DNA of 10,339 nucleotides from Candidatus Hydrothermarchaeota archaeon. Lineage in GTDB: Archaea; CAYFZR01. Every line of letters starts with the position of its first letter. Position 1 is the first letter of the stretch. A program made the translations under genes and the position numbers. Shown one piece after another: positions 78-9,849 of the stretch. The notes under the pieces were generated by a model. The model was given only the letters and a program-made list of their open reading frames with translations, ran no database searches and was not told the DNA's origin. Location of the stretch: positions 1 through 10,339 of the forward strand of contig JBHIEG010000044.1 of NCBI GenBank assembly GCA_046760505.1, read 5' to 3'.

Positions 78-794
78 TTGGAGAAGGTTAACACCGGGAT
101 AAAGGGTTTCGATGAAATCTTGGGAGGAGGTCTTCCAAGAGAGTCAAACATCCTGATAGTTGGCGGTCCTGGCACCGGTAAAACGATGTTTTGCCTTCAG
201 TACCTGTACAAAGGCGCCTATGATTATAATGAGCCCGGAATATACATATCATTGGAAGAAAGAGAAAAAGATCTTAAAAGAAATGTGGAATCATTTGGCT
301 GGGACCTTGATAGTCTCATTAATCAAGGAAAACTTGAGATAATGGATGTGAGCACCACGCTAGTAGATGAGTACGAGGGATCCGATATTTCTCTCAGGGT
401 CATAGACATAGGTTCTCTCATAAATATTATCTTCGAGAGAGTTAAAAGCTTAAAAGCTCAAAGAGTTGCGATCGACTCAATTCCCACTCTTTTCTTACAA
501 TACGATAATCTCTCTTCTGTTAGAAATAATATTTTCAGACTTTGCAATCTATTATTAACAATCGGCTGCACCACCCTTTTATGCTCTCAAGCCGGTATCG
601 GTCAAATTGGAAAGTTTGGAATTGAAGAGTACATTGCTCAAGGAGTAATCGTGCTGAATCTCCAGAGATCCGGTGATAAGCTTGTACGATCTCTTTATGT
701 TCGTAAGATGCGCGGATGTGACCACAGTATGTATGTACATCCCTTTGAGATCACTCCTGAAGAGGGAATCGTTCTGGAGAAGATCATAAGGTGA
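78..794 (+). CDS. Single-domain KaiC/RAD55 (RecA-superfamily) ATPase, 238 aa
   Basis: N-terminal TGIKGFDEILGGGLP, Walker A GGPGTGKT, SLEE catalytic glutamates, Walker B VAIDS, GIEEYIAQGVIVL, and RKMRG arginine-finger motif. TTG start with SD. Confidence 0.93.
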   Translation: MEKVNTGIKGFDEILGGGLPRESNILIVGGPGTGKTMFCLQYLYKGAYDYNEPGIYISLEEREKDLKRNVESFGWDLDSLINQGKLEIMDVSTTLVDEYEGSDISLRVIDIGSLINIIFERVKSLKAQRVAIDSIPTLFLQYDNLSSVRNNIFRLCNLLLTIGCTTLLCSQAGIGQIGKFGIEEYIAQGVIVLNLQRSGDKLVRSLYVRKMRGCDHSMYVHPFEITPEEGIVLEKIIR

Positions 795-798
795 GATT

Positions 799-1506
799 AT
801 GGGAAGATCACTTTCTTTAATTTCAATGAAAGGAGGCGTCGGCAAGACCTTTCTTACATTAAATCTAGGAGTAATTCTCTCAACCACTGGTAAAAATGTA
901 ACTATACTCGATGCGGACTTAAAAAAGCCTGATTTAGCATCTTTCTTAGACATAAAGGTTTCTACCTCCTTGCACGATGTTCTAAAAAACACAGCCTCCT
1001 TAAAAGATGCAATCTACGATGGTCCTAGCGGGGTTAAATTAGTCTGTGGATCTCAAATGCTAGAAAAAATATTTAATGCCAACTCTGAGCAGTTGAAGGA
1101 GGTCATCACAAATCTCCAATCTACATGCGATTATCTCTTAATTGATACTTCTTCCGGATTCGGAAGAGATACGATTTATTCGATTTCAGAATCAGATTTG
1201 AGCCTTTTAGTCGCGGTCCCTACGATTTCTTCCCTGTACGATTGCATTCGAGTAAACAAGATACTCAAGGATCTCGATTCGAGGCCGATAGGATTCGTCC
1301 TCAACAGATTCAAACGAACTGCAGGATCAACGTTCAATGAAAAGAGTATTAGAGAAATCTTAGAAATTCCTTTACTCGGCGTAGTCCCTGAAAACGAGGA
1401 TGTAACGATTGCAGAGGAGTTTGCAAAACCGGTGGTGACTCATCGTCCAAACTCTCCACCTTCACAGGCACTGGTGAAAATAGCTCAAGAATTATCGAGA
1501 TGGTAA
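799..1506 (+). CDS. minD: MinD/ParA-family ATPase (archaeal MinD-like), 235 aa
   Basis: Deviant Walker A SMKGGVGKT with signature Lys, DADL switch I, LIDTSSG switch II, VLNR and LLGVVPE motifs. AAGGTGA SD at 788-794 overlaps the upstream stop. Family-level call only. Confidence 0.9.
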   Translation: MGRSLSLISMKGGVGKTFLTLNLGVILSTTGKNVTILDADLKKPDLASFLDIKVSTSLHDVLKNTASLKDAIYDGPSGVKLVCGSQMLEKIFNANSEQLKEVITNLQSTCDYLLIDTSSGFGRDTIYSISESDLSLLVAVPTISSLYDCIRVNKILKDLDSRPIGFVLNRFKRTAGSTFNEKSIREILEIPLLGVVPENEDVTIAEEFAKPVVTHRPNSPPSQALVKIAQELSRW

Positions 1507-1507
1507 T

Positions 1508-3046
1508 ATGATTGAAAAATGGCTTTTTTCCTTGGAGTATGACTCCAAGGAACTTAAAGAGATGCCAGACGTCAAAGCCACGGACGTCTCCGGTGAAGTT
1601 TTATTCTCGTCAGGTGATGTCGAAATAGTCAAACAACCTAGGGATCCATTACCGAGATACATTGTAAAATCACCTGAGTTGAGTAAAAAAGAAAAAGAAA
1701 TGATGGAAGCGATATTTGAGAACTTCTTAAGCGATTCTCGTATTAACATAGATAAGATACCAGAAGAGAGGCTTGAAAAAGCAGTGAAAGAAGAAATAAA
1801 GAGAATTTATCTTGAACTTTACCCCGGGTCCCCAATAAACGAAACTATAGTCCATCAGATAATGAAAAAAACTATAGGATATGAGTTTCTGGACGATCTC
1901 CTGAGAGATGAAAACTTGGAAGAAGTAATGGTCAACGGAGCAGATAATAATGTATTCGTGCTCCATCGGAAGTTTGGAATGTGTGAAACTAATATAACAC
2001 CTCCCAATGATGATGCCATCAAAAGAATAATTGATAAAATCGCAAGGAGGGTAGGAAGGAAAATAGATCACGCGAATCCTTTATTGGACGCTCGACTTCC
2101 TGATGGTTCGAGGGTAAATGCTACCCTTCCTCTAGTAACCCTGAGAGGTCCTACCATTACAATAAGAAAATTTAAAGCCGATCCTTTAACCATAGTAAAC
2201 CTAATTAACTTTAACACGGTACCCCTTGATTTTGCTGCTTTTCTGTGGCTATGTGTTGATGGATTAGGTATCAGACCTGCAAACATTATCATATCCGGTG
2301 GTACGGGATCTGGTAAGACCTCCACCCTAAATTGCTTGGCCATGTTTATACCTGAAAACGAAAGGATAATCACCATCGAAGATACTGCGGAGCTGCAAAT
2401 CAGGCATCGGCATTGGATACAGATGGAGTCTAAGCCACCTAACATAGAGGGGCGCGGAGAGGTTAAAATGGATGCTCTTGTCAAGAACTGTCTTAGAATG
2501 AGACCTGACAGGATCATAGTTGGAGAGGTAAGAGGTGCTGAGGCAACAACCCTGTTTACAGCAATGAACACAGGTCATGACGGGTGTATGAGCACTTTGC
2601 ATGCAAATACAGCAAGAGAGACTATCACACGTTTGACCAATCCTCCAATGAATGTGCCGCAAATTATGATCCCTGCCCTAGACATCATATTGATGCAAAG
2701 CAGATTCAGACATCGTGAAATAGGCACTGTTCGCAGAATTACTGAAGTATCTGAAATTGCTGGAATTGAAGAGGGCAAAATACAGTTAAACACCATCTAC
2801 AAATACGATCCCATAACAGACACGTTAAAGGAAACTGGCGTTCCCAGTAGAGTAAGGATGCAACTTGCAGAAAGTTCTGGTTTCTCTGGTGCCGAGATAA
2901 ACAAGGAACAGAAGATAATGGAAATTGTTTTGAACTATATGGTGATTAGAGGTATAACCGATTTGGAAAGTGTTCGAAGCGTGGTAAGGGAATACTACAC
3001 TGACAGACACTCTTTAATCGAGAAAATTCAAAGAGAGATACGATGA
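1508..3046 (+). CDS. CpaF/TadA/VirB11-family type IV pilus / type II secretion ATPase, 512 aa
   Basis: LEEVMVNG, DARLPDGSRVNAT, ITIRKF, Walker A GGTGSGKT, Asp box IEDTAEL, Walker B RMRPDRIIVGEVRG, His box TGHDGCMSTLHAN. One nucleotide separates it from the minD stop. Confidence 0.95.
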   Translation: MIEKWLFSLEYDSKELKEMPDVKATDVSGEVLFSSGDVEIVKQPRDPLPRYIVKSPELSKKEKEMMEAIFENFLSDSRINIDKIPEERLEKAVKEEIKRIYLELYPGSPINETIVHQIMKKTIGYEFLDDLLRDENLEEVMVNGADNNVFVLHRKFGMCETNITPPNDDAIKRIIDKIARRVGRKIDHANPLLDARLPDGSRVNATLPLVTLRGPTITIRKFKADPLTIVNLINFNTVPLDFAAFLWLCVDGLGIRPANIIISGGTGSGKTSTLNCLAMFIPENERIITIEDTAELQIRHRHWIQMESKPPNIEGRGEVKMDALVKNCLRMRPDRIIVGEVRGAEATTLFTAMNTGHDGCMSTLHANTARETITRLTNPPMNVPQIMIPALDIILMQSRFRHREIGTVRRITEVSEIAGIEEGKIQLNTIYKYDPITDTLKETGVPSRVRMQLAESSGFSGAEINKEQKIMEIVLNYMVIRGITDLESVRSVVREYYTDRHSLIEKIQREIR

Positions 3047-3069
3047 CTCCCGATAACTCTAAATATAAA

Positions 3070-3546
3070 TTAGACTCTTAATCCGGGCTTGAGGAGGATT
3101 TCACATTCTTCTCCAAAAATCTTCAGTTCATGACGATAATCTTTATCGCAGGCTAATTCGATGGCAACACAGAAAGGAACTGCCCTGCCACACTGAATTG
3201 GAATGTTAGATTCTTTCATCCAAGTACAAGCCTGTCTGTAAGGACATTTGCCTCCCACTTTTATGTGTACAGTATCATTCTCTTTTTTAATCTCGAAGTC
3301 GTCTTTATCAAGAAGACCTTCCTTATCAAATATCTCTACATAGTCTCTACAAGCATTGGTAGGATCATCGGTAGGATCAAGTCTTAATCCTCTTTTTTTC
3401 AAGTAAATTTTCACTCCTTCCGACTCAACTAAATGAAAGTATAGTTTTAGGTTTCCAAGTTGTTTGCCTGCATTTGCAATGCCCCATATCCATGCATTCA
3501 TTACATTGAGCACTCCTTCAAGAGTTTTAACCATGGCCCTCACCAT
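3070..3546 (-). CDS. Cys-rich hypothetical protein, probable V4R-like fold (MetOD1-type), 158 aa
   Basis: Helical N-terminal half, then a beta-rich part with CPYRQAC...C...C and terminal CEI, resembling V4R-clan proteins. AAGGAG SD precedes the ATG. The fold call is inference. Confidence 0.6.
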   Translation of the reverse strand: MVRAMVKTLEGVLNVMNAWIWGIANAGKQLGNLKLYFHLVESEGVKIYLKKRGLRLDPTDDPTNACRDYVEIFDKEGLLDKDDFEIKKENDTVHIKVGGKCPYRQACTWMKESNIPIQCGRAVPFCVAIELACDKDYRHELKIFGEECEILLKPGLRV

Positions 3547-3601
3547 CTTTTTCTCCTTAAGTTTGTGTTGGAACTTCTCATCCTACTTCGCTAATAACGA
3601 A

Positions 3602-3895
3602 CTATACTGGCTTCAGTATATCGACTCTGGTGAGAAATGAAAATCCAAGCCAAAACGATACAGATGTGAATATGAATACCAATTCCAACTGCTCCATCAA
3701 ATCCACATAGATATCAAGCCACTCTATAGTCACGCAAAGCCGTAGTACTGTTAGCGCAATTAGTGCGGTTAACGCAAAAAACCATATCGGGCTTGCTATA
3801 TAAGTTTCTCTATAAATCATTGACGCATAAATTGCTGCTATCAATGATGCTGTGAAACCAATAAATTCTATTCCCGCGATAATAGTTATGTTCAT
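3602..3895 (-). CDS. Small integral membrane protein, about 3 TM helices, 97 aa
   Basis: Three hydrophobic stretches (about aa 5-27, 37-57, 70-88). ATGA overlap with the upstream gene at 3892-3895. Confidence 0.8.
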   Translation of the reverse strand: MNITIIAGIEFIGFTASLIAAIYASMIYRETYIASPIWFFALTALIALTVLRLCVTIEWLDIYVDLMEQLELVFIFTSVSFWLGFSFLTRVDILKPV

Positions 3896-4158
3896 TTTAT
3901 CTTCCTCATTTTTTTATGGGAGGTATAACATGCCATTGCGAATATTATACAGCCGATCATTGCGCTAAAATGTTCTAAAAAATTAAATCCCGTTTCCCAT
4001 ACAAAATCCTCAACTATTGTAAAAATACTTTCCAGTAAGAGAAAGGTATACCCGGCAGTTAACCATCTCCATTTTTTATCCGCCTTTACAGTCTGTATCA
4101 TAAAAATAAAACCGGTTGATACCATTGCTAAGGCGAGAACTTCAGCTATTTCCACCAT
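3892..4158 (-). CDS. Small integral membrane protein, about 3 TM helices, 88 aa
   Basis: Three hydrophobic stretches (about aa 4-21, 30-49, 58-78), a basic first loop and basic C-terminal tail. AGGTGA SD upstream of the ATG. Confidence 0.82.
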   Translation of the reverse strand: MVEIAEVLALAMVSTGFIFMIQTVKADKKWRWLTAGYTFLLLESIFTIVEDFVWETGFNFLEHFSAMIGCIIFAMACYTSHKKMRKIK

Positions 4159-4189
4159 TTGCCTTCACCTGTCCATGTTCGTCCGCAAA

Positions 4190-4678
4190 TCATTCGATGA
4201 GTTTTAATAAAGCAGCCAGTAACTCTTCTACACCCTCTGCTTCGGTTGCAACGGTTCCTATAACTGGAATTTCTTCTGAAAGATTCATTTGGTCTCTAAC
4301 CAACCAAGGTTTCAAGGCTCCGTGCATATCTTGTTTGTTAGCAGCCACTACAAAGGGAACTTTTCTTTTCAATTCTATTTTATCAAGAATTTCTAACGCC
4401 TCTTGAAAGCTATCGGGGTCAGTGCTATCTACCACAAGTATTATTCCATGGATTCCCATGGAAAGAATCTCATGCATAAATTCAAATTCCCTTCTGCTCG
4501 GAGTACCAAATAAACGCAGTTCTAAGGAGTCAATTTTCCTGTCACCATAGTCAAAACCAATTGTAGTACCTAAACGCTCAACATGTAGGACTTTCTTGGT
4601 TAAAGATTCTACTAAGGTTGATTTTCCCGATCTATAGGTGCCGATCACTATTATCTTTATATCTTGCTTCGATCTCAT
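4190..4678 (-). CDS. MglA-like (COG2229-type) small GTPase with aberrant G3 motif, 162 aa from ATG 4678
   Basis: G1 GTYRSGKS, G2 TTIGFDYG, G3 GTPSRREF (canonical GTPGQxRF), G4 NKQD, G5 TVAT. Start is uncertain: GTG 4717, ATG 4678, or fusion to the upstream V4R gene. Confidence 0.88.
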   Translation of the reverse strand: MRSKQDIKIIVIGTYRSGKSTLVESLTKKVLHVERLGTTIGFDYGDRKIDSLELRLFGTPSRREFEFMHEILSMGIHGIILVVDSTDPDSFQEALEILDKIELKRKVPFVVAANKQDMHGALKPWLVRDQMNLSEEIPVIGTVATEAEGVEELLAALLKLIE

Positions 4679-5222
4679 TTTTTTTAAATTTTCTAAATCT
4701 TTTAACCTCAATCTCACAGTGTGAATCTTTTATTGCTCTACATTTGTTTTCAATGCCGTCTAAGTCTGTTTCAAATGTCTCAATTGCAACGCCTGTGATT
4801 AACCCTCGGAGGATATTGTCAGCAGGATATTTAGTCTTTTGAGATGTCTCTTCCAAAAAATAATCTGCTTCAGGTGGATTTGAAGACCTAACGATTAGAT
4901 GTTTCTCGTCAATGCTCAGCTTCACTATATCCAACAAGCCCCATCCTGCACTTGTTAGATATCTCAAAACAGTCCTTAACAGCTCTTCTGGATCATCTAT
5001 TTTTTTTCCTAACACTGTACCATCTTTGAATTTTCTCGTTAAATACTTGCCATCTTCAATTCCTGCGCTGTACAACACTGCTGCTGCACCTCTTCCCATA
5101 ATTTTTTCCACTTCGGTACAGAGAGTTCCCAAGCCCCCGGTTGAAATCACTATCGATCTAATTCCACCGACTCTTATAACTCCGTTTTTGCTCTCTTCGA
5201 AATTTATTAATTTTTCGATCAT
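4632..5222 (-). CDS. Stand-alone V4R-domain protein, 196 aa (start revised to ATG 5222)
   Basis: GVIRVGGIRSIVI hairpin, GxGAAAVLYSAG helix, GWG, RGLITG, ENKC...HCEI. The 44-codon extension in the ORF track overlaps the Roadblock gene; ATG 5222 lies just after that gene's stop with an AGGCGA SD-like site. Confidence 0.88.
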   Translation of the reverse strand: MIEKLINFEESKNGVIRVGGIRSIVISTGGLGTLCTEVEKIMGRGAAAVLYSAGIEDGKYLTRKFKDGTVLGKKIDDPEELLRTVLRYLTSAGWGLLDIVKLSIDEKHLIVRSSNPPEADYFLEETSQKTKYPADNILRGLITGVAIETFETDLDGIENKCRAIKDSHCEIEVKRFRKFKKNEIEARYKDNSDRHL

Positions 5223-5230
5223 TTTATCGC

Positions 5231-5614
5231 CTATAACGCCTTTAGTATTTCTTCTACTCGCTTTGCAGTTCTTTCCATTTGAATTAGTACCAATCCAAGG
5301 TTTGCATCCTTTTCTACCAACGTTACAAGTAAAGCCTCTTCTCCCGCTCCACATGAAACTATCTTTCCCTGATCACATTCTATTACTGTCTGAGAAAATT
5401 CTCCTTGCTCAAGTTCCTGAGCAGCCATCTCGCTTGTTCCTACTATAGCAGCTGTCATAGCAGCTATCCTTCTTGGATCTACGCCACCGGGTAAATCGTG
5501 AGCAATGATTAAACCGTCTCTTCTCACGATTCCGACCGCTATAATATCTGATAGCTTCCGTAGATCCTTTATCGCACCTTTAAGTTTTACCTTAGGGTCT
5601 CCTACCATTTTCAT
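5231..5614 (-). CDS. Roadblock/LC7 (MglB-like) protein, 127 aa
   Basis: IIAVGIVRRDGLIIA, RIAAMTAAIVGTSEMAAQEL, ANLGLVL are typical Roadblock/MglB motifs. ATG 5614 overlaps the upstream stop as TGATG. Confidence 0.93.
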   Translation of the reverse strand: MKMVGDPKVKLKGAIKDLRKLSDIIAVGIVRRDGLIIAHDLPGGVDPRRIAAMTAAIVGTSEMAAQELEQGEFSQTVIECDQGKIVSCGAGEEALLVTLVEKDANLGLVLIQMERTAKRVEEILKAL

Positions 5615-7146
5615 CAAAACCACTTTTTAATCATAAACTCGCAAAAATCATCACCTTTTCCCTGACATTTTGGCTCTCTACAAACCAGTTCTTCTAGTCC
5701 CAATGCACACTCTGTAAAACCACTCAAATACCCCCTTAGAAAGTGACATACGGACGATTCGGCCCTTCCTTTATAGGGGGCTGTCTCGAAATTGTTCTTC
5801 ACTCTAAGGTCTACAATATTTTTCTCTTTGTCAACGTTTATTTTATCGAGGTCAAACCATGATATTTGGGAAAAGTGAGATTTATAAGCGTTAATTTTCT
5901 CTTCCTCTTTCATTTTACTCCATACTTCTAATAGATAACCGAAACTTCTTCTTCCGCTTTCATGACCCACGTTATACAAAACTCCCGCTGCTCCCGTGCC
6001 GAGAGTTTGAGTTAGTCCTTCATGTAAGGATTCCAGAAAACCTCTAATTTCTTCTGCTGTTTGTCTGAGTTTTTCTTTTGATGCTTTCAACTCCTTCTCT
6101 GCTCGCTTGCGTTCTGTAACATCTAATAAAGAGGCTACGCTCTTTTTTGTTCCGGGAATCATAGCAACAGTTAGAAAGATGTCTTTAATCCTACCATGTC
6201 TGTCAATAAAGCGGAATTCATAGTTTCTCGGCGCAGCATCCTCATCAATCCTTCGAAGACGGTGATACTCTTTCATTTTCTCCAGATCATCTTTCAGGAC
6301 AAATTCAGTCCAGCTCTTTTTACCTTCTATTTCCTCTCTTGAATATCCACTGAGCTCTTCAAATTGGGAGTTAACCATGGAGAGAGTCGTATCTTCTTCG
6401 ATGATCACCGTCGCCGTTCCAGTTGATTCAAAAATTGCGCGGTATTTTTCTTCGCTCTCACGCAACGCCTCTTCCGACAACTTGCGCTCGATGATTTCAG
6501 CCTGTAATATCTCATTGATTTTTTCAAGCTCTACGGTACGCTCCTGAACCCGTATTTCTAACTCCTCGTGAGCTTTCCGCAGTGCTTCTTCCGCCCGCTT
6601 GCGATCTCTCTCCTCTCTATCTCTTTGTAGTCTCGCATGTAGCACAGGAGCTATGTGAGTAGCAATGGTTTCCAACATCTTCTGGTCTTTCTCGGTATAG
6701 TCAGTAGCCTTATTGGCGACCGCGAGAATCCCGATGACATTTTCTTGATGAATTATTGGGACAACTAGAACTCTGAGAATAGGAATATGTCCTTCAGGTA
6801 CACGCAAAGGCTTGTTCGAACAGAGAGTCTTCTTTTCTATGAGAGCCCGGCCCCAGATGCCTCTCCATGCATCGCGGGGGAATACGATGTCCTTGTCGGG
6901 AACTTTGCACTTTTCCCAGATTTCTCTGGTCATGGAGGGGCAGACTAAGGCTCCATCTTCATCAATGTATCCGAAGATCCCGTACTTGCTTTCAACGACT
7001 TGCAGAATGACCTGCAACACTTCTCCGTACATTTCCTCGTCTGGAATAGTGAGAAAGATATTTGCGATCTGGTTCCTTATTGCTAGCTCTCGCTCAGATT
7101 CCAGCAACTGATCCGTCTGCTTCATGTTTTTCTCAATCCTTTTCAT
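5614..7146 (-). CDS. GAF - coiled coil/signalling helix - PAS/PAC - V4R sensor protein, 510 aa
   Basis: GAF (VPEGHIPILRVLVVPI...GILAVANK...YTEKD), helix with VQERT, PAS (EEKYRAIFE...VN..FEELSGYSREEIEGK), PAC end DVTERKRAE, V4R (GAAGVLYNVG...CHFLRGYLSG...EPKCQGKGDDFCEF). No H-box or HATPase domain. GGGGGT SD-like site upstream. Confidence 0.92.
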   Translation of the reverse strand: MKRIEKNMKQTDQLLESERELAIRNQIANIFLTIPDEEMYGEVLQVILQVVESKYGIFGYIDEDGALVCPSMTREIWEKCKVPDKDIVFPRDAWRGIWGRALIEKKTLCSNKPLRVPEGHIPILRVLVVPIIHQENVIGILAVANKATDYTEKDQKMLETIATHIAPVLHARLQRDREERDRKRAEEALRKAHEELEIRVQERTVELEKINEILQAEIIERKLSEEALRESEEKYRAIFESTGTATVIIEEDTTLSMVNSQFEELSGYSREEIEGKKSWTEFVLKDDLEKMKEYHRLRRIDEDAAPRNYEFRFIDRHGRIKDIFLTVAMIPGTKKSVASLLDVTERKRAEKELKASKEKLRQTAEEIRGFLESLHEGLTQTLGTGAAGVLYNVGHESGRRSFGYLLEVWSKMKEEEKINAYKSHFSQISWFDLDKINVDKEKNIVDLRVKNNFETAPYKGRAESSVCHFLRGYLSGFTECALGLEELVCREPKCQGKGDDFCEFMIKKWF

Positions 7147-7201
7147 TCTTTACCCCCGTCACTTCATTATTTTTTATTTTAGAGATTTTGGATGAATTTT
7201 G

Positions 7202-8332
7202 CTAGTCGATTTTCATTATCTCGTGAACCAGCCTCTGAAGCACCTCCTCAACACCTTTAGCTTGAGTGGCAACAGTTCCAATTACAGGGACATCAAGTCC
7301 TATTCTCTCAGTGATCTCCTCTATCGATAGGGCATTGGGTAAATCTTGTTTATTCGCTGCTATTACAAGGGGCTTATCTTCTTCAGCAAGTTTTATCATC
7401 TCTTTGGCCCTTTCAAAACTCTCTGGGTCCGTGCTGTCTACTACGAGGACTATCCCCGAGATATCTTTCGCGAAGATATTAAAAATGAATTCAAAACGTT
7501 CCTGGCCTGGAGTACCGAATATTTCAGCCTCGATTTCACTTATCTCCGTGTAACCATGATCGAATGCTATTGTGGTACCCATTCTATCGATGCTAATCGA
7601 GTTAGGACATAGTGCTCTTATAAAAGTAGATTTTCCTGAGTGATATGGTCCGGTAACCAAGATTTTTGGTATATAGGGTACCAATCCATATTTCTCCTTG
7701 AGAATATAGGGTATCCAGCTGGTTCCCGGGATTAGATCGGTTTGTTCTATCCTGAACATGTCAAACCGAATTCCTCCTTTGTAAAATGACTTAAACTCGA
7801 TTACTCCATCAAAAAATTTCTTTATTCTATTCATATCGTTTTGATTCAAGCTCCAATTAGAGAATTTATAAATAGGAGAAAAACCACGATCCTTTGCTAC
7901 CTTATTTGCTAATTGAATAAACTCATCAAGATCGATATCCAAGTCGATGAAGAACTCGAGCGAATTAAAAACGATTCTTCCATTTTCATTCTTGCTAACA
8001 ATCTCAGAGAGTGTTGACAAAAGTTCAGAGGGGTCTGATGGATCTACAGCATATTTTTCCTGGGAAGGCTGTTGCATGCGTGGAGATAAACAATCGATTA
8101 CTAGGAGGGAATCGGTTATTTTAACACCAAAGCGCTCAAAATTCTCTTTAACTCTGTTTGGCCATCGGTAAAAATCAAGATAAATACTGGGCTCATTGTT
8201 TTTAACTCCTTCAGCAATAAATTGTTCTGCGAAAAGAGTTTTTTCAGCAGGGCCGTCACTATATAACAAAAGAGAACAGGGTCTTGGTAAATCACCTATC
8301 CGCTCATCAAGAGCTCGAATGCCTATTCTCAT
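7202..8332 (-). CDS. Fusion of a degenerate KaiC/RAD55-like domain (N) and an MglA-like small GTPase (C), 376 aa
   Basis: N part: GIRALDERIGDLP, decayed Walker A SDGPAEKT, IDC, decayed Walker B IVFNS, FDGVIEF. C part (from about 7670): GPYHSGKS, TTIAFDHG, GTPGQERF, NKQD, TVAT. Confidence 0.9.
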   Translation of the reverse strand: MRIGIRALDERIGDLPRPCSLLLYSDGPAEKTLFAEQFIAEGVKNNEPSIYLDFYRWPNRVKENFERFGVKITDSLLVIDCLSPRMQQPSQEKYAVDPSDPSELLSTLSEIVSKNENGRIVFNSLEFFIDLDIDLDEFIQLANKVAKDRGFSPIYKFSNWSLNQNDMNRIKKFFDGVIEFKSFYKGGIRFDMFRIEQTDLIPGTSWIPYILKEKYGLVPYIPKILVTGPYHSGKSTFIRALCPNSISIDRMGTTIAFDHGYTEISEIEAEIFGTPGQERFEFIFNIFAKDISGIVLVVDSTDPESFERAKEMIKLAEEDKPLVIAANKQDLPNALSIEEITERIGLDVPVIGTVATQAKGVEEVLQRLVHEIMKID

Positions 8333-8333
8333 G

Positions 8334-9056
8334 TTATATCTCCATGACTATCCCATTATCCGTTATCTCGAATGGAATCCATGAGGTACTATGCTTTACC
8401 CCTTTTAGACTAAAAATGCGGAAAGCGCGCTTTATTCCACTTTCACTTTCGCTCAGCCTTAATTCAAAGATACCATCAGCCATGTACCTGAGAGTTTGAA
8501 CTGTACGTTCATCATGGACTCCTGATTGCAGTACGCATAATCCCGTCATGCCTGATCTTTTAACTCTCGCTGAAAGTATCTCAAAGAATTTTATTATCGA
8601 TTGGGAGCCTGTATCGATCATGAGGTTTGAAAGGCAATCAAATACTAGTCGAGCGTTCTTCAATCCTTGTCTTGCGTCTTCGATTGTTAGGCTAACCTCA
8701 CTCAGATTTGAGGGGCTGTCCACGTAATATTTGGATGTTCTTTTGGATGAAACACGCCAAGAATAGCAGTCAACGAATCTGATCATGTTTTTATCAATGT
8801 ATTGAGATATATCCCACCCGAAAGACCTCATACCTGCTTCTATCGAGTCTATCGGCTCGTCAGTATGCACATACACCGCTGGATATCCTTGAGATAGACC
8901 ATGATACAAGAATTGCTGACAAAAGACAGTCTTTCCTGAGCCAGGAGGGGCTAAGAGCAAAATGAATAACCCTCTGGGCGGATCCCCTTCGATCAGATTA
9001 TCTACATGGGGGAATATAAGTGGTTTTTTATCCTTTCTTGCGTGTTTAAGCGCCAA
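8334..9056 (-). CDS. KaiC/RAD55-like ATPase, partly degenerate, 240 aa (start revised to TTG 9056)
   Basis: Walker A APPGSGKT, HTDE in place of the EE motif, VDCYS, Walker B LVFDC, MADGIFEL, FSLKG in place of KMRG. In-frame TTG at 9056-9054 has GGAGG (9066-9070) 9 nt upstream. Confidence 0.88.
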   Translation of the reverse strand: MALKHARKDKKPLIFPHVDNLIEGDPPRGLFILLLAPPGSGKTVFCQQFLYHGLSQGYPAVYVHTDEPIDSIEAGMRSFGWDISQYIDKNMIRFVDCYSWRVSSKRTSKYYVDSPSNLSEVSLTIEDARQGLKNARLVFDCLSNLMIDTGSQSIIKFFEILSARVKRSGMTGLCVLQSGVHDERTVQTLRYMADGIFELRLSESESGIKRAFRIFSLKGVKHSTSWIPFEITDNGIVMEI

Positions 9057-9849
9057 ACACCTTTTCCTCCGGAAAGACAACTATCCCTTTATCGGTGATT
9101 TTTAAAGGAAATAGACCTTCTCTAAATTTCATTCCTCTCATTTTGAGCACTTCGATGGCACGCATGCGTTTGTCGTTATGCCTAAAATTGTAAAGCACTA
9201 TGACTCCTTCTGTCATGAATTCTTCTATGCCAAAACGAGAGATCTTATCGCTCCCATAGGGCATTTCAGTGGTTACTAAAGTAGTACATCCAAGATCCTC
9301 GAGTAAATTAAACAAGCCTAGCAACTCCTGCCTTATTATAAAATCATCACTTATCTGAAGTTCCAGGGACGAGAGAGAGTCAATAACGATCCTCTTTGCT
9401 CTTGTTTTCTTTACTTTTTCTGTTATAATCTCAGTAACCGTATCTATATGGAACGGTTCACTGACGGTAAAAACAGACTTTGGTGCTCCAAGAGCCTCTG
9501 CAATAAGGGATCCATCGGGCTGAGTCTCTTTTTCAACCTGATATTGTTTTTGAGGTAATGGTGTTTTTCTCTTGGGTATCAGGCTCAACAAACCTAATTT
9601 GCCCATTCCTTCCAATTTTTCAAGGTCCCAACCAAAAGTCTTCATGTTCCTCTTAATTTTCTCAATTCTCTCTTCAAAAGTAACATATACGCCGTTTTCA
9701 CCTGAATTTATTCCAGCAATTAGAAACTGAACGCAGAATATGCTCTTGCCCGACCCTGGACCGCCGGATATGAGTATAATAGATTTTTCTGGAATGCCTC
9801 CATCAAGGATTTCATCTAACCCATCTATACCTGTGGATACCTTTTTCAT
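9046..9849 (-). CDS. Single-domain KaiC/RAD55-like ATPase with internal insertion, 267 aa
   Basis: STGIDGLDEILDGGIP, Walker A GGPGSGKS, TFEE, Walker B IVIDS, GIEEFMTEGVIVL, KMRG. Confidence 0.94.
   Translation of the reverse strand: MKKVSTGIDGLDEILDGGIPEKSIILISGGPGSGKSIFCVQFLIAGINSGENGVYVTFEERIEKIKRNMKTFGWDLEKLEGMGKLGLLSLIPKRKTPLPQKQYQVEKETQPDGSLIAEALGAPKSVFTVSEPFHIDTVTEIITEKVKKTRAKRIVIDSLSSLELQISDDFIIRQELLGLFNLLEDLGCTTLVTTEMPYGSDKISRFGIEEFMTEGVIVLYNFRHNDKRMRAIEVLKMRGMKFREGLFPLKITDKGIVVFPEEKVFGA

Follow-up and report, generated by a model that had tools for sequence, protein, structure and literature searches.

The window analysed here is the whole of a 10,339-base contig (C44) that belongs to a 2.17-Mb, 142-contig archaeal metagenome-assembled genome (MAG; G000) with an estimated contamination of 5.67%. 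Its minus-strand operon, in which the genes are separated by short gaps or overlap, encodes in order a DUF835 protein, two KaiC-like ATPases, a fusion of a KaiC-like domain to a small GTPase, a GAF-PAS-V4R protein, a Roadblock protein, a V4R protein, a stand-alone small GTPase, two small hydrophobic proteins and a 158-residue protein. The subject of this analysis is the stand-alone GTPase, a member of the MglA family (4190..4717, minus strand), which is 175 amino acids (aa) long when read from the GTG at 4717 and 162 aa long when read from the ATG at 4678; the 162-aa form corresponds to database record P0001. It is referred to below as the variant. Small GTPases with Roadblock partners lie at the prokaryotic root of eukaryotic Ras-superfamily switching, and a member that naturally lacks both the Gln and the Gly of switch II, encoded beside a canonical paralogue and one Roadblock protein, is a natural experiment on the residues responsible for hydrolysis and switching.

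The variant GTPase and its canonical partner

The translation segment of the variant is LRLFGTPSRREFEFM, and its G3/switch II stretch is LFGTPSRREFEFM. The G3 motif itself reads GTPSRREF (G71-F78; 4484..4507, minus strand), in which Ser74 takes the place of the Gly, Arg75 that of the Gln and Glu77 that of a conserved Arg. In an alignment to Arl8/Arl10 chains, S74 and R75 fall under the G and Q of DxxGQ. The canonical counterpart is found in the 376-aa fusion protein (7202..8332, minus strand), in which a degenerate KaiC-like domain (Pfam KaiC, 6.7e-15, residues 2-128) is joined to an MglA-family GTPase (Pfam Arf, 2.4e-15, residues 223-371). The G domain segment of this protein is IFGTPGQERFEFI, and its G3 motif is GTPGQERF (7493-7516). 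Both motifs are exact in the open reading frame (ORF) translations, as originally predicted, and the accompanying claim that the other nucleotide-binding motifs of the variant are intact holds as well. These are the G1 P-loop GTYRSGKS (residues 26-33; 4619..4642, minus strand), whose G26, G31 and K32 are invariant in 78 sequences, the G2 stretch ERLGTTIGFD (containing GTT), the G4 motif NKQD (residues 127-130; 4328..4339, minus strand), and the G5 stretch TVATEA, with its Ala present. The only Roadblock/LC7 (MglB-type) protein of the window (130 aa; 5231..5623, minus strand; Pfam Robl_LC7, 8.7e-17) is encoded two genes upstream of the variant on the same strand.

Pfam matches the variant to Arf (3.5e-17) and Ras (3.7e-13). 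Its AlphaFold2 (AF2) model has a predicted local distance difference test (pLDDT) value of 90.1, and the best structural match, with a template modelling (TM) score of 0.80 and a root-mean-square deviation of 2.2, is to Thermus thermophilus MglA in 3T12; Arf/Arl chains follow in Foldseek with TM scores of 0.76-0.78. With respect to Arf-family traits, G3 opens with Thr and not with Asp, and an N-terminal helix is modelled at residues 5-15 with pLDDT values of 68-75. The top sequence match in the PDB is 9uan_B (miniGq), an engineered mini-G protein whose DVGAQR stretch has Ala at the same Gly site, which is probably a coincidence of local similarity.

The close similarity originally noted between the two G domains of the window stands as a matter of identity (47% over 151 residues, 71/151, E 2e-44), but the shared VVDSTD and AANKQD stretches are family-wide motifs and no sign of special closeness. 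Among 216 aligned G domains drawn from two database searches, which form the basis of the motif tallies given here, VVDSTD retains its D in 213, S in 184 and T in 157, and NKQD retains N in 208, K in 204, Q in 188 and D in 201. In the tree, the fused G domains group together with good support, almost uniformly with GTPGQE, and the variant falls among the stand-alone GTPases. That the variant arose recently from the fused G domain by tandem duplication was considered and rejected: placement of the variant as sister to P0067, which is identical to the window's fused protein, is rejected by the approximately unbiased (AU) test (p-AU 0.022, log-likelihood difference 24.2), and the pair is therefore not the result of a recent duplication.

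Motif rarity and the Gln-less clade

The MglA family has been defined by the coupling of its members to Roadblock/MglB genes (Wuichet and Sogaard-Andersen 2014, PMC4316618). As that study describes them, groups 2-5 share GTPGQ in G3, a Thr that replaces the Arg finger of G2, and genes near Roadblock genes; group 4 is archaeal, and the catalytic mechanism of groups 2-5, which lack the MglA Arg finger, is unknown (PMC4316618). The variant has the single Ras-like G domain and the nearby Roadblock gene (within four genes) expected of the family. It shares the Thr-Thr of G2 with groups 2-5, and especially with archaeal group 4, and its NKQD agrees with the [NT]KxD that characterizes G4 in groups 1, 4 and 5, but of the defining GTPGQ it has lost both the Gly and the Gln (GTPSR). 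It also differs from the conservon protein CvnD (group 2), having NKQD and TVATEA where CvnD has NxFD in G4 and DAR in G5. At the level of these motifs, the fused paralogue (GTT, GTPGQ) matches groups 2-5 exactly and the variant matches them in all but G3.

Of the 216 domains, 204 keep the switch II Gly, 168 the Gln and 164 the Arg of GQxRF. Ser occupies the Gly site in five; among the four besides the variant are copies whose G1 or G4 is damaged (NKQT in P0110, NHTG in P0158, and a G1 without Lys in P0159). Residues other than Gly are present at this site in 11 of the 216 domains, and all 11 also lack the Gln, a co-occurrence that fits a pattern in which Gly is lost only where Gln is also absent. 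In 196 further domains taken from 193 fetched loci, Ser was found only in the window (PSRRE) and in one fused protein of genome G053 (PSHKR). The constraint on the Gln site is much looser than that on the Gly site, with whole clades carrying Leu, Met, His or Arg/Lys. The G053 protein (L017, G053:C1; 397 aa) belongs to the fused clade and has degenerated independently, with GTPSHKRF in G3 and SNHTG in place of NKQD in G4. Because of this altered G4, its guanine specificity has probably been lost as well; a Roadblock gene still adjoins it.

Ten clusters with the G3 pattern xPG[KR]x[DEA]F and the G2 pattern VER[LFM]G[ST]S (P0068, P0006, P0107 and P0214-P0220), here called the Gln-less clade, emerged from a profile search for which the variant and three relatives bearing Arg served as seeds. 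The clade is monophyletic with support of 100/99 even when the G3 columns are dropped. Its Gln site is basic in all ten members (Arg in four, Lys in six), and the conserved Arg is likewise replaced in all ten, by Asp or Glu in seven and by residues including Ala in the remainder. In two Methanomassiliicoccales MAG loci (L054 and L055) and a metagenome contig that is cut upstream (L134), the gene order is KaiC, a KaiC-like/GTPase fusion with GTPGQERF, two Roadblock genes, the Gln-less GTPase, KaiC and TPR-KaiC. An order-level search of Methanomassiliicoccales-type genomes detected a stand-alone xPG[KR]x[DEA]F GTPase in 5 of 79 genomes, and in all five it lies 0.9-1.3 kb downstream of the GTPGQERF fusion, with two Roadblock genes in between in the loci examined. 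All 32 loci fetched from this order contain the fusion with at least one Roadblock match, and in 13 of them (L222, L223, L229, L231, L232, L235-L241 and L243) the slot after the two Roadblock genes is taken by a homologue of the window's 158-aa protein in place of the Gln-less GTPase. Sequence identity to the Methanomassiliicoccales fusions is 42-45% for the fusion of the window, and the window's Roadblock protein shares 48-56% with the Roadblocks of L054 and L055.

For the closest Gln-less pair, the ratio of non-synonymous to synonymous substitution rates (dN/dS) is 0.09 at a dS of 1.35, close to saturation, a level that the more distant pairs have reached. Given the same operon in five genomes and this low ratio, the pairing of a canonical and a Gln-less GTPase around Roadblock proteins is, as judged from gene order and substitution rates, a recurring and selected arrangement. 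That it recurs in two archaeal lineages far from each other points to an asymmetry by design within the little-studied archaeal KaiC hubs, one comparable to that of septin pseudo-subunits or asymmetric Rag dimers. The suggestion that the altered G3 might recur under purifying selection is thus borne out for a Gln-less second GTPase, but not for the Gly-to-Ser change, which is unique to this genome. In the literature searched, no description was found of Gln-less archaeal MglA-type GTPases or of a two-GTPase KaiC operon. The pairing is the more valuable lead, and the Ser variant of a single genome is, taken alone, a small curiosity.

The variant shares several traits with the Gln-less clade, namely the basic residue at the Gln site (R75), the replacement of the conserved Arg (E77) and a position in the operon downstream of a KaiC-like/GTPGQ fusion and a Roadblock gene. 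The Methanomassiliicoccales-type GTPases follow two Roadblock genes, whereas the variant follows a Roadblock gene and a V4R gene. Three of the characters held in common are rare among the 216 domains: Arg in G1 occurs in nine, Arg or Lys at the Gln site in nine, and Asp or Glu at the Arg site in four, and only the variant and P0006 combine all three. Overall identity between the variant and the clade is 35-42%, and in BLAST searches the variant is 39-40% identical to the L054 and L055 proteins, no closer than to the fused domains. Firm membership of the variant in the Gln-less clade was considered and is not established by the tree tests or by the scores of hidden Markov models (HMMs; see below). 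The variant, through descent or convergence, combines a Gln-less partner's switch II signature with its place in the operon, and adds to them a private Gly-to-Ser change.

Predicted function and alternatives

The favoured reading, which is held with slightly better than even confidence and draws on analogy with characterized GTPases, is that the variant is a functional second GTPase that binds guanine nucleotide and a Roadblock dimer but hydrolyses and switches poorly. The intact G1, G2, G4 and G5 would permit the binding of guanine nucleotide and Mg. Because the catalytic Gln (now Arg75) and the gamma-phosphate-sensing Gly (now Ser74) are both lost, GTP hydrolysis would be expected to be poor, as would the response of switch II to GTP versus GDP. 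For MglA, the Q82A substitution is described as abolishing both intrinsic and MglB-stimulated hydrolysis with wild-type-like MglB binding (PMC3199381). For Ras, Gly60 and Thr35 are described as hydrogen bonding to the gamma-phosphate, and G60A, like T35S, as favouring state 1 with drastically impaired GTPase activity (PMC4867591). Docked on the Roadblock dimer, the variant might work alongside the canonical fused GTPase as a regulatory subunit, long-lived and almost constitutive, and by occupying the operon's single Roadblock dimer it could modulate that GTPase within the KaiC hub, as in a competition model. Input may arrive via the GAF-PAS-V4R and V4R proteins, and output may reach the neighbouring type IV pilus-type ATPase.

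A model of the variant in complex with two Roadblock copies, GTP and Mg gave a score of 0.89, compared with 0.01 for the best of three controls; the mark applied to such scores is reached by 58 of 80 solved complexes and by 2 of 110 mismatched pairs. Between runs, at least 84% of contacts are shared, the partner pLDDT is at least 88, and the modelled Roadblock interface includes residue 70 and the switch II residues 73, 75, 77-78, 80-81 and 84-85. The model supports Roadblock binding by the variant but falls short of demonstrating it.

A number of observations weigh against a nucleotide-bound, poorly hydrolysing subunit, and some of them concern the complex model, which may reflect recall of the solved MglA-MglB structures (3T12 and 3T1Q) and which was run with custom alignments and ligands, unlike the calibration of the tool. 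Others concern the relationship to the Gln-less clade. A joint clade of the variant and the Gln-less GTPases is not established but is not rejected either (log-likelihood difference 2.4, p-AU 0.36), and a grouping of the variant with a canonical, Asgard-type clade is likewise not rejected (difference 8.8, p-AU 0.22). When G3 is masked, the clade HMMs score the variant at 195.0 bits against the Asgard-type clade and at 164.8 bits against the Gln-less clade. The Gln-less clade keeps the G3 Gly in ten of ten members and has Ser-Ser or Thr-Ser in G2, and the variant has S74 and Thr-Thr. The basic residue that is conserved at the Gln site could also mean a different catalytic mechanism and not the lack of one. 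The remaining points come from the search for orthologues. Relatives above 50% identity were absent from 5.8 billion proteins, 1.84 billion cluster representatives and 60 other genomes, and 327 pattern matches in Joint Genome Institute (JGI) metagenome contigs included no relative of the variant. The exact form, with Ser at the Gly site (GTPSR), was found in none of the other genomes searched, and because no relative above 50% identity was found, selection on Ser74 itself is not measurable. The phylum is represented by two genomes in the collection, and both window GTPases and any syntenic locus are missing from the genome of the same genus (G001), whose best match to the type IV ATPase is 53-54% identical. 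The nearest protein to the variant, at 50% identity, is from the Jordarchaeaceae/Freyarchaeota group. In the Asgard-type group of P0002, two loci of one Freyarchaeum-type genome had no Roadblock or KaiC matches within about 8 kb at E <=1e-4, and this clade therefore offers no operon analogy.

The original prediction of a hydrolysis-deficient GTPase or nucleotide sensor thus gains from the MglA Q82A and Ras G60A analogies, the lack of decay, the recurrence of Gln-less GTPases in five genomes and the complex model; it loses from the restriction of the Ser variant to one genome and from the finding that the two window GTPases are not sisters.

The main alternative, possible although unlikely, is that the variant is an active GTPase with a non-canonical mechanism, in which the positive charge has moved from the Arg of GQxRF to the Gln site (SRREF in the variant, G[KR]x[DE]F in the related clade). 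The Arg or Lys at the Gln site would then serve as a built-in finger, and a water-positioning residue would be supplied by Roadblock, V4R or another partner, in the way that RapGAP is described as supplying one for Rap (PMC3199381). The uniformly basic Gln site of the Gln-less clade, the accompanying replacement of the conserved Arg (often by an acidic residue) and the purifying selection acting on the clade are all consistent with such a mechanism, as are the location of R75 within the modelled Roadblock interface and the unexplained mechanism of groups 2-5, reported to act without the MglA Arg finger (PMC4316618). However, the variant has lost the G3 Gly that every member of the Gln-less clade keeps, the corresponding G60A change is described as impairing the GTPase activity of Ras (PMC4867591), and no candidate residue acting in trans was identified. 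A relocated charge is therefore plausible for the Gln-less clade and, because the variant also lacks the Gly, less plausible for the variant itself.

A lineage-specific copy that was recently crippled or is drifting neutrally, in which a single-base change (GGC to AGC) struck a dispensable accessory gene with no special role, is an improbable explanation. The variant is a singleton at both 90% and 50% clustering, the same-genus genome lacks the whole locus, and Ser at the Gly site is rare and otherwise includes damaged copies, all of which would agree with drift. However, the reading frame is open, G1, G2, G4 and G5 are perfect, and the variant keeps 23 of the 24 columns that are conserved at >=80% in 77 relatives, the sole miss being G74S; 57 of the 77 relatives miss as many of these columns or more. 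Its end branch (0.57-0.69, versus medians of 0.38-0.54) is ordinary, the gene is tightly packed in the operon and overlaps the upstream V4R gene, and it is free of polymorphism across four samples. Of the two features by which the original prediction would have recognized a decaying copy, uniqueness to this genome is therefore observed and decay is not.

The original prediction also argued against a sequencing error on the grounds that all of the changed codons differ at several bases. This is correct for AGA versus CAG, AGG versus GAA and GAA versus CGT (three bases each), but the Ser codon AGC differs from the Gly codon GGC at one base. The conclusion nevertheless survives on other evidence, as four assemblies agree on the variant gene. 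That the variant is a sequencing, assembly or binning artefact is barely credible: although the window is an entire 10.3-kb contig in a 142-contig MAG with the contamination stated above, contigs of four vent-metagenome runs (from one study, possibly the window's own source) each span 3000-8400 in a single piece at a word depth of 22-41 with identical G3 codons and no differences in the variant gene, and both GTPases lie on the same contig, so that their pairing is independent of binning. In all four assemblies the contig is about 10 kb long, and over 5.4 kb they show only two differences, both of which change a protein: 4864 T>G (D120A in the V4R protein) and 7911 A>G (L141S in the KaiC-like part of the fusion). 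When the codons AGC AGA AGG GAA (4487-4498, minus strand) are shifted by one base, they match GGA CAG GAA AGA of the paralogue on contig C10 at 7 of 11 bases, compared with 2 of 12 in frame (counted by eye). It may be speculated that a deletion and a compensating insertion altered the Gln, Glu and Arg together, but 11 bases are too short to argue from.

A nucleotide-bound, poorly hydrolysing variant can be compared with several known systems. The MglA-MglB pairs of Thermus thermophilus and Myxococcus xanthus (3T12, 3T1Q) likewise combine a Ras-like G domain with a Roadblock/LC7 dimer; a 2:1 Roadblock:GTPase complex is modelled for the variant, and its G3 also opens with Thr instead of Asp. Unlike MglA, the variant has no Arg finger beside the G2 Thr (GTT), has GTPSR in place of TVPGQ, and is encoded by an archaeon in a KaiC/V4R operon with a second GTPase. 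The actinobacterial conservons (CvnA-D, Mfp) are described as comprising a sensor, a Roadblock protein, an accessory protein and a small MglA-family GTPase (PMC4316618), as does the window, but the window's sensor is GAF-PAS-V4R and not a histidine kinase, a V4R protein stands where DUF742/CvnC would be, G4 is NKQD and not the NxFD of group 2, and KaiC ATPases and a second GTPase are added.

Hydrolysis-dead small GTPases such as Ras G60A and the Q61 mutants resemble the variant in that the G-domain fold and nucleotide-binding motifs are intact and the catalytic or switch II residues are altered. Rnd and RhoH are further examples of pseudoGTPases or hydrolysis-dead GTPases. A pseudoGTPase is defined by a loss of nucleotide binding and/or hydrolysis that has been shown biochemically; for the variant, a prokaryotic MglA-type protein with a Roadblock partner, the prediction is made at the level of motifs. 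The Rag heterodimer with Ragulator, as described in PMC10933270, also combines two GTPases with Roadblock-fold modules, but in the window the G domains and Roadblock domains are on separate polypeptides. The same source discusses V4R as part of the TRAPPC3/Bet3 superfamily in the context of Asgard archaea (PMC10933270).

A bolder and doubtful extension would take the operon's products as a split assembly, Rag/Ragulator-like or TRAPP-like, in which two MglA-type GTPases would share Roadblock and V4R (TRAPPC3-fold) proteins under KaiC control. The second GTPase would be an obligatory subunit that is nucleotide-locked and does not hydrolyse, or it would carry an in-cis Arg/Lys finger. The assembly as a whole would determine which state the canonical GTPase is in and, through it, govern the adjacent type IV pilus-type ATPase. 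If this were so, a relocated in-cis finger would be a new catalytic arrangement, and archaea outside the Asgard group would already possess asymmetric two-GTPase switches with a dedicated pseudo-subunit.

Neighbouring genes

The minus-strand operon begins with a DUF835 protein that runs off the contig end (9923..10339; Pfam DUF835, 2e-28), followed by two KaiC-like ATPases of 267 aa (9046..9849; Pfam KaiC, 2.3e-69) and 248 aa (8334..9080; Pfam KaiC, 4.6e-40). Between the fusion and the Roadblock gene lies a 510-aa GAF-PAS-V4R sensor-type protein (5614..7146; Pfam GAF_2, 2.9e-19; PAS_3, 2.3e-9; V4R, 8.7e-12), and between the Roadblock gene and the variant lies the V4R-domain protein (196 aa from the ATG at 5222; 4632..5222), whose Pfam V4R match (E 5.5e-4) is below the curated cut-off. 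The 3' end of the V4R gene overlaps the start of the variant. Directly 3' of the variant are the ORFs for two small hydrophobic proteins (3602..4158, minus strand) of 88 aa (3892-4158) and 97 aa (3602-3895), in which no Pfam family scored above the cut-off.

The 158-aa protein at the end of the operon (3070..3546, minus strand) contains a Cys motif and has no match in a Pfam search. Its model (pLDDT 86) has a predicted V4R/TRAPPC3-like fold, with matches to Thor TRAPPC3 (7yh3, TMq 0.61) and MopR (0.52-0.53), although the Foldseek E value is only about 3e-3. Four of its Cys residues are conserved (C101, C107, C119 and C148), and the predicted fold may also be described as V4R/TRAPPC3/H-NOX-like.

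The N-terminal KaiC-like domain of the fusion (residues 1-220) has a degenerate Walker A motif, which reads SDGPAEKT in the window and SETIAEKR in L055; inactivated KaiC domains have been termed iKaiC (Galperin et al. 2018, PMC5847659). This KaiC-like/GTPase architecture of about 380-410 aa is widespread in archaea, and a Roadblock gene adjoins it in nine of nine full-length fused loci, in addition to all 32 loci of the Methanomassiliicoccales-type order. The same-genus genome G001 also lacks the second fused GTPase that is found on contig C6 of G000, and keeps only an orthologue of the stand-alone GTPGQ copy of contig C10. Given that the window locus and the C6 fused GTPase are both missing from this genome, the KaiC/Roadblock/GTPase cassettes seem, from these gene contents, to be variable accessory elements.

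The divergent genes of the window (78..3046, plus strand) encode a KaiC (78-794; Pfam KaiC, 2.3e-73), a MinD/ParA-type ATPase (799-1506; Pfam CbiA, 3.3e-20) and a T2SSE/type IV pilus-type secretion ATPase (1508-3046; Pfam T2SSE, 5.3e-51). KaiC, MinD-type and Roadblock genes are described as known companions of archaeal type IV pilus loci, and a repeated association of archaeal KaiC signalling hubs with loci for the type IV pilus and the archaellum is described as well (PMC4858521). The adjacency of the ATPase to the cassette also recalls the control of type IV pilus ATPases by MglA and SofG that is described for Myxococcus (PMC4316618). A secretion ATPase of the type IV pilus/archaellum type is found beside both KaiC-like/GTPase-Roadblock cassettes of the genome: the copy on contig C6 (L042), which is 37% identical, lies about 2 kb from the Roadblock gene, and the window copy comes with MinD and KaiC.

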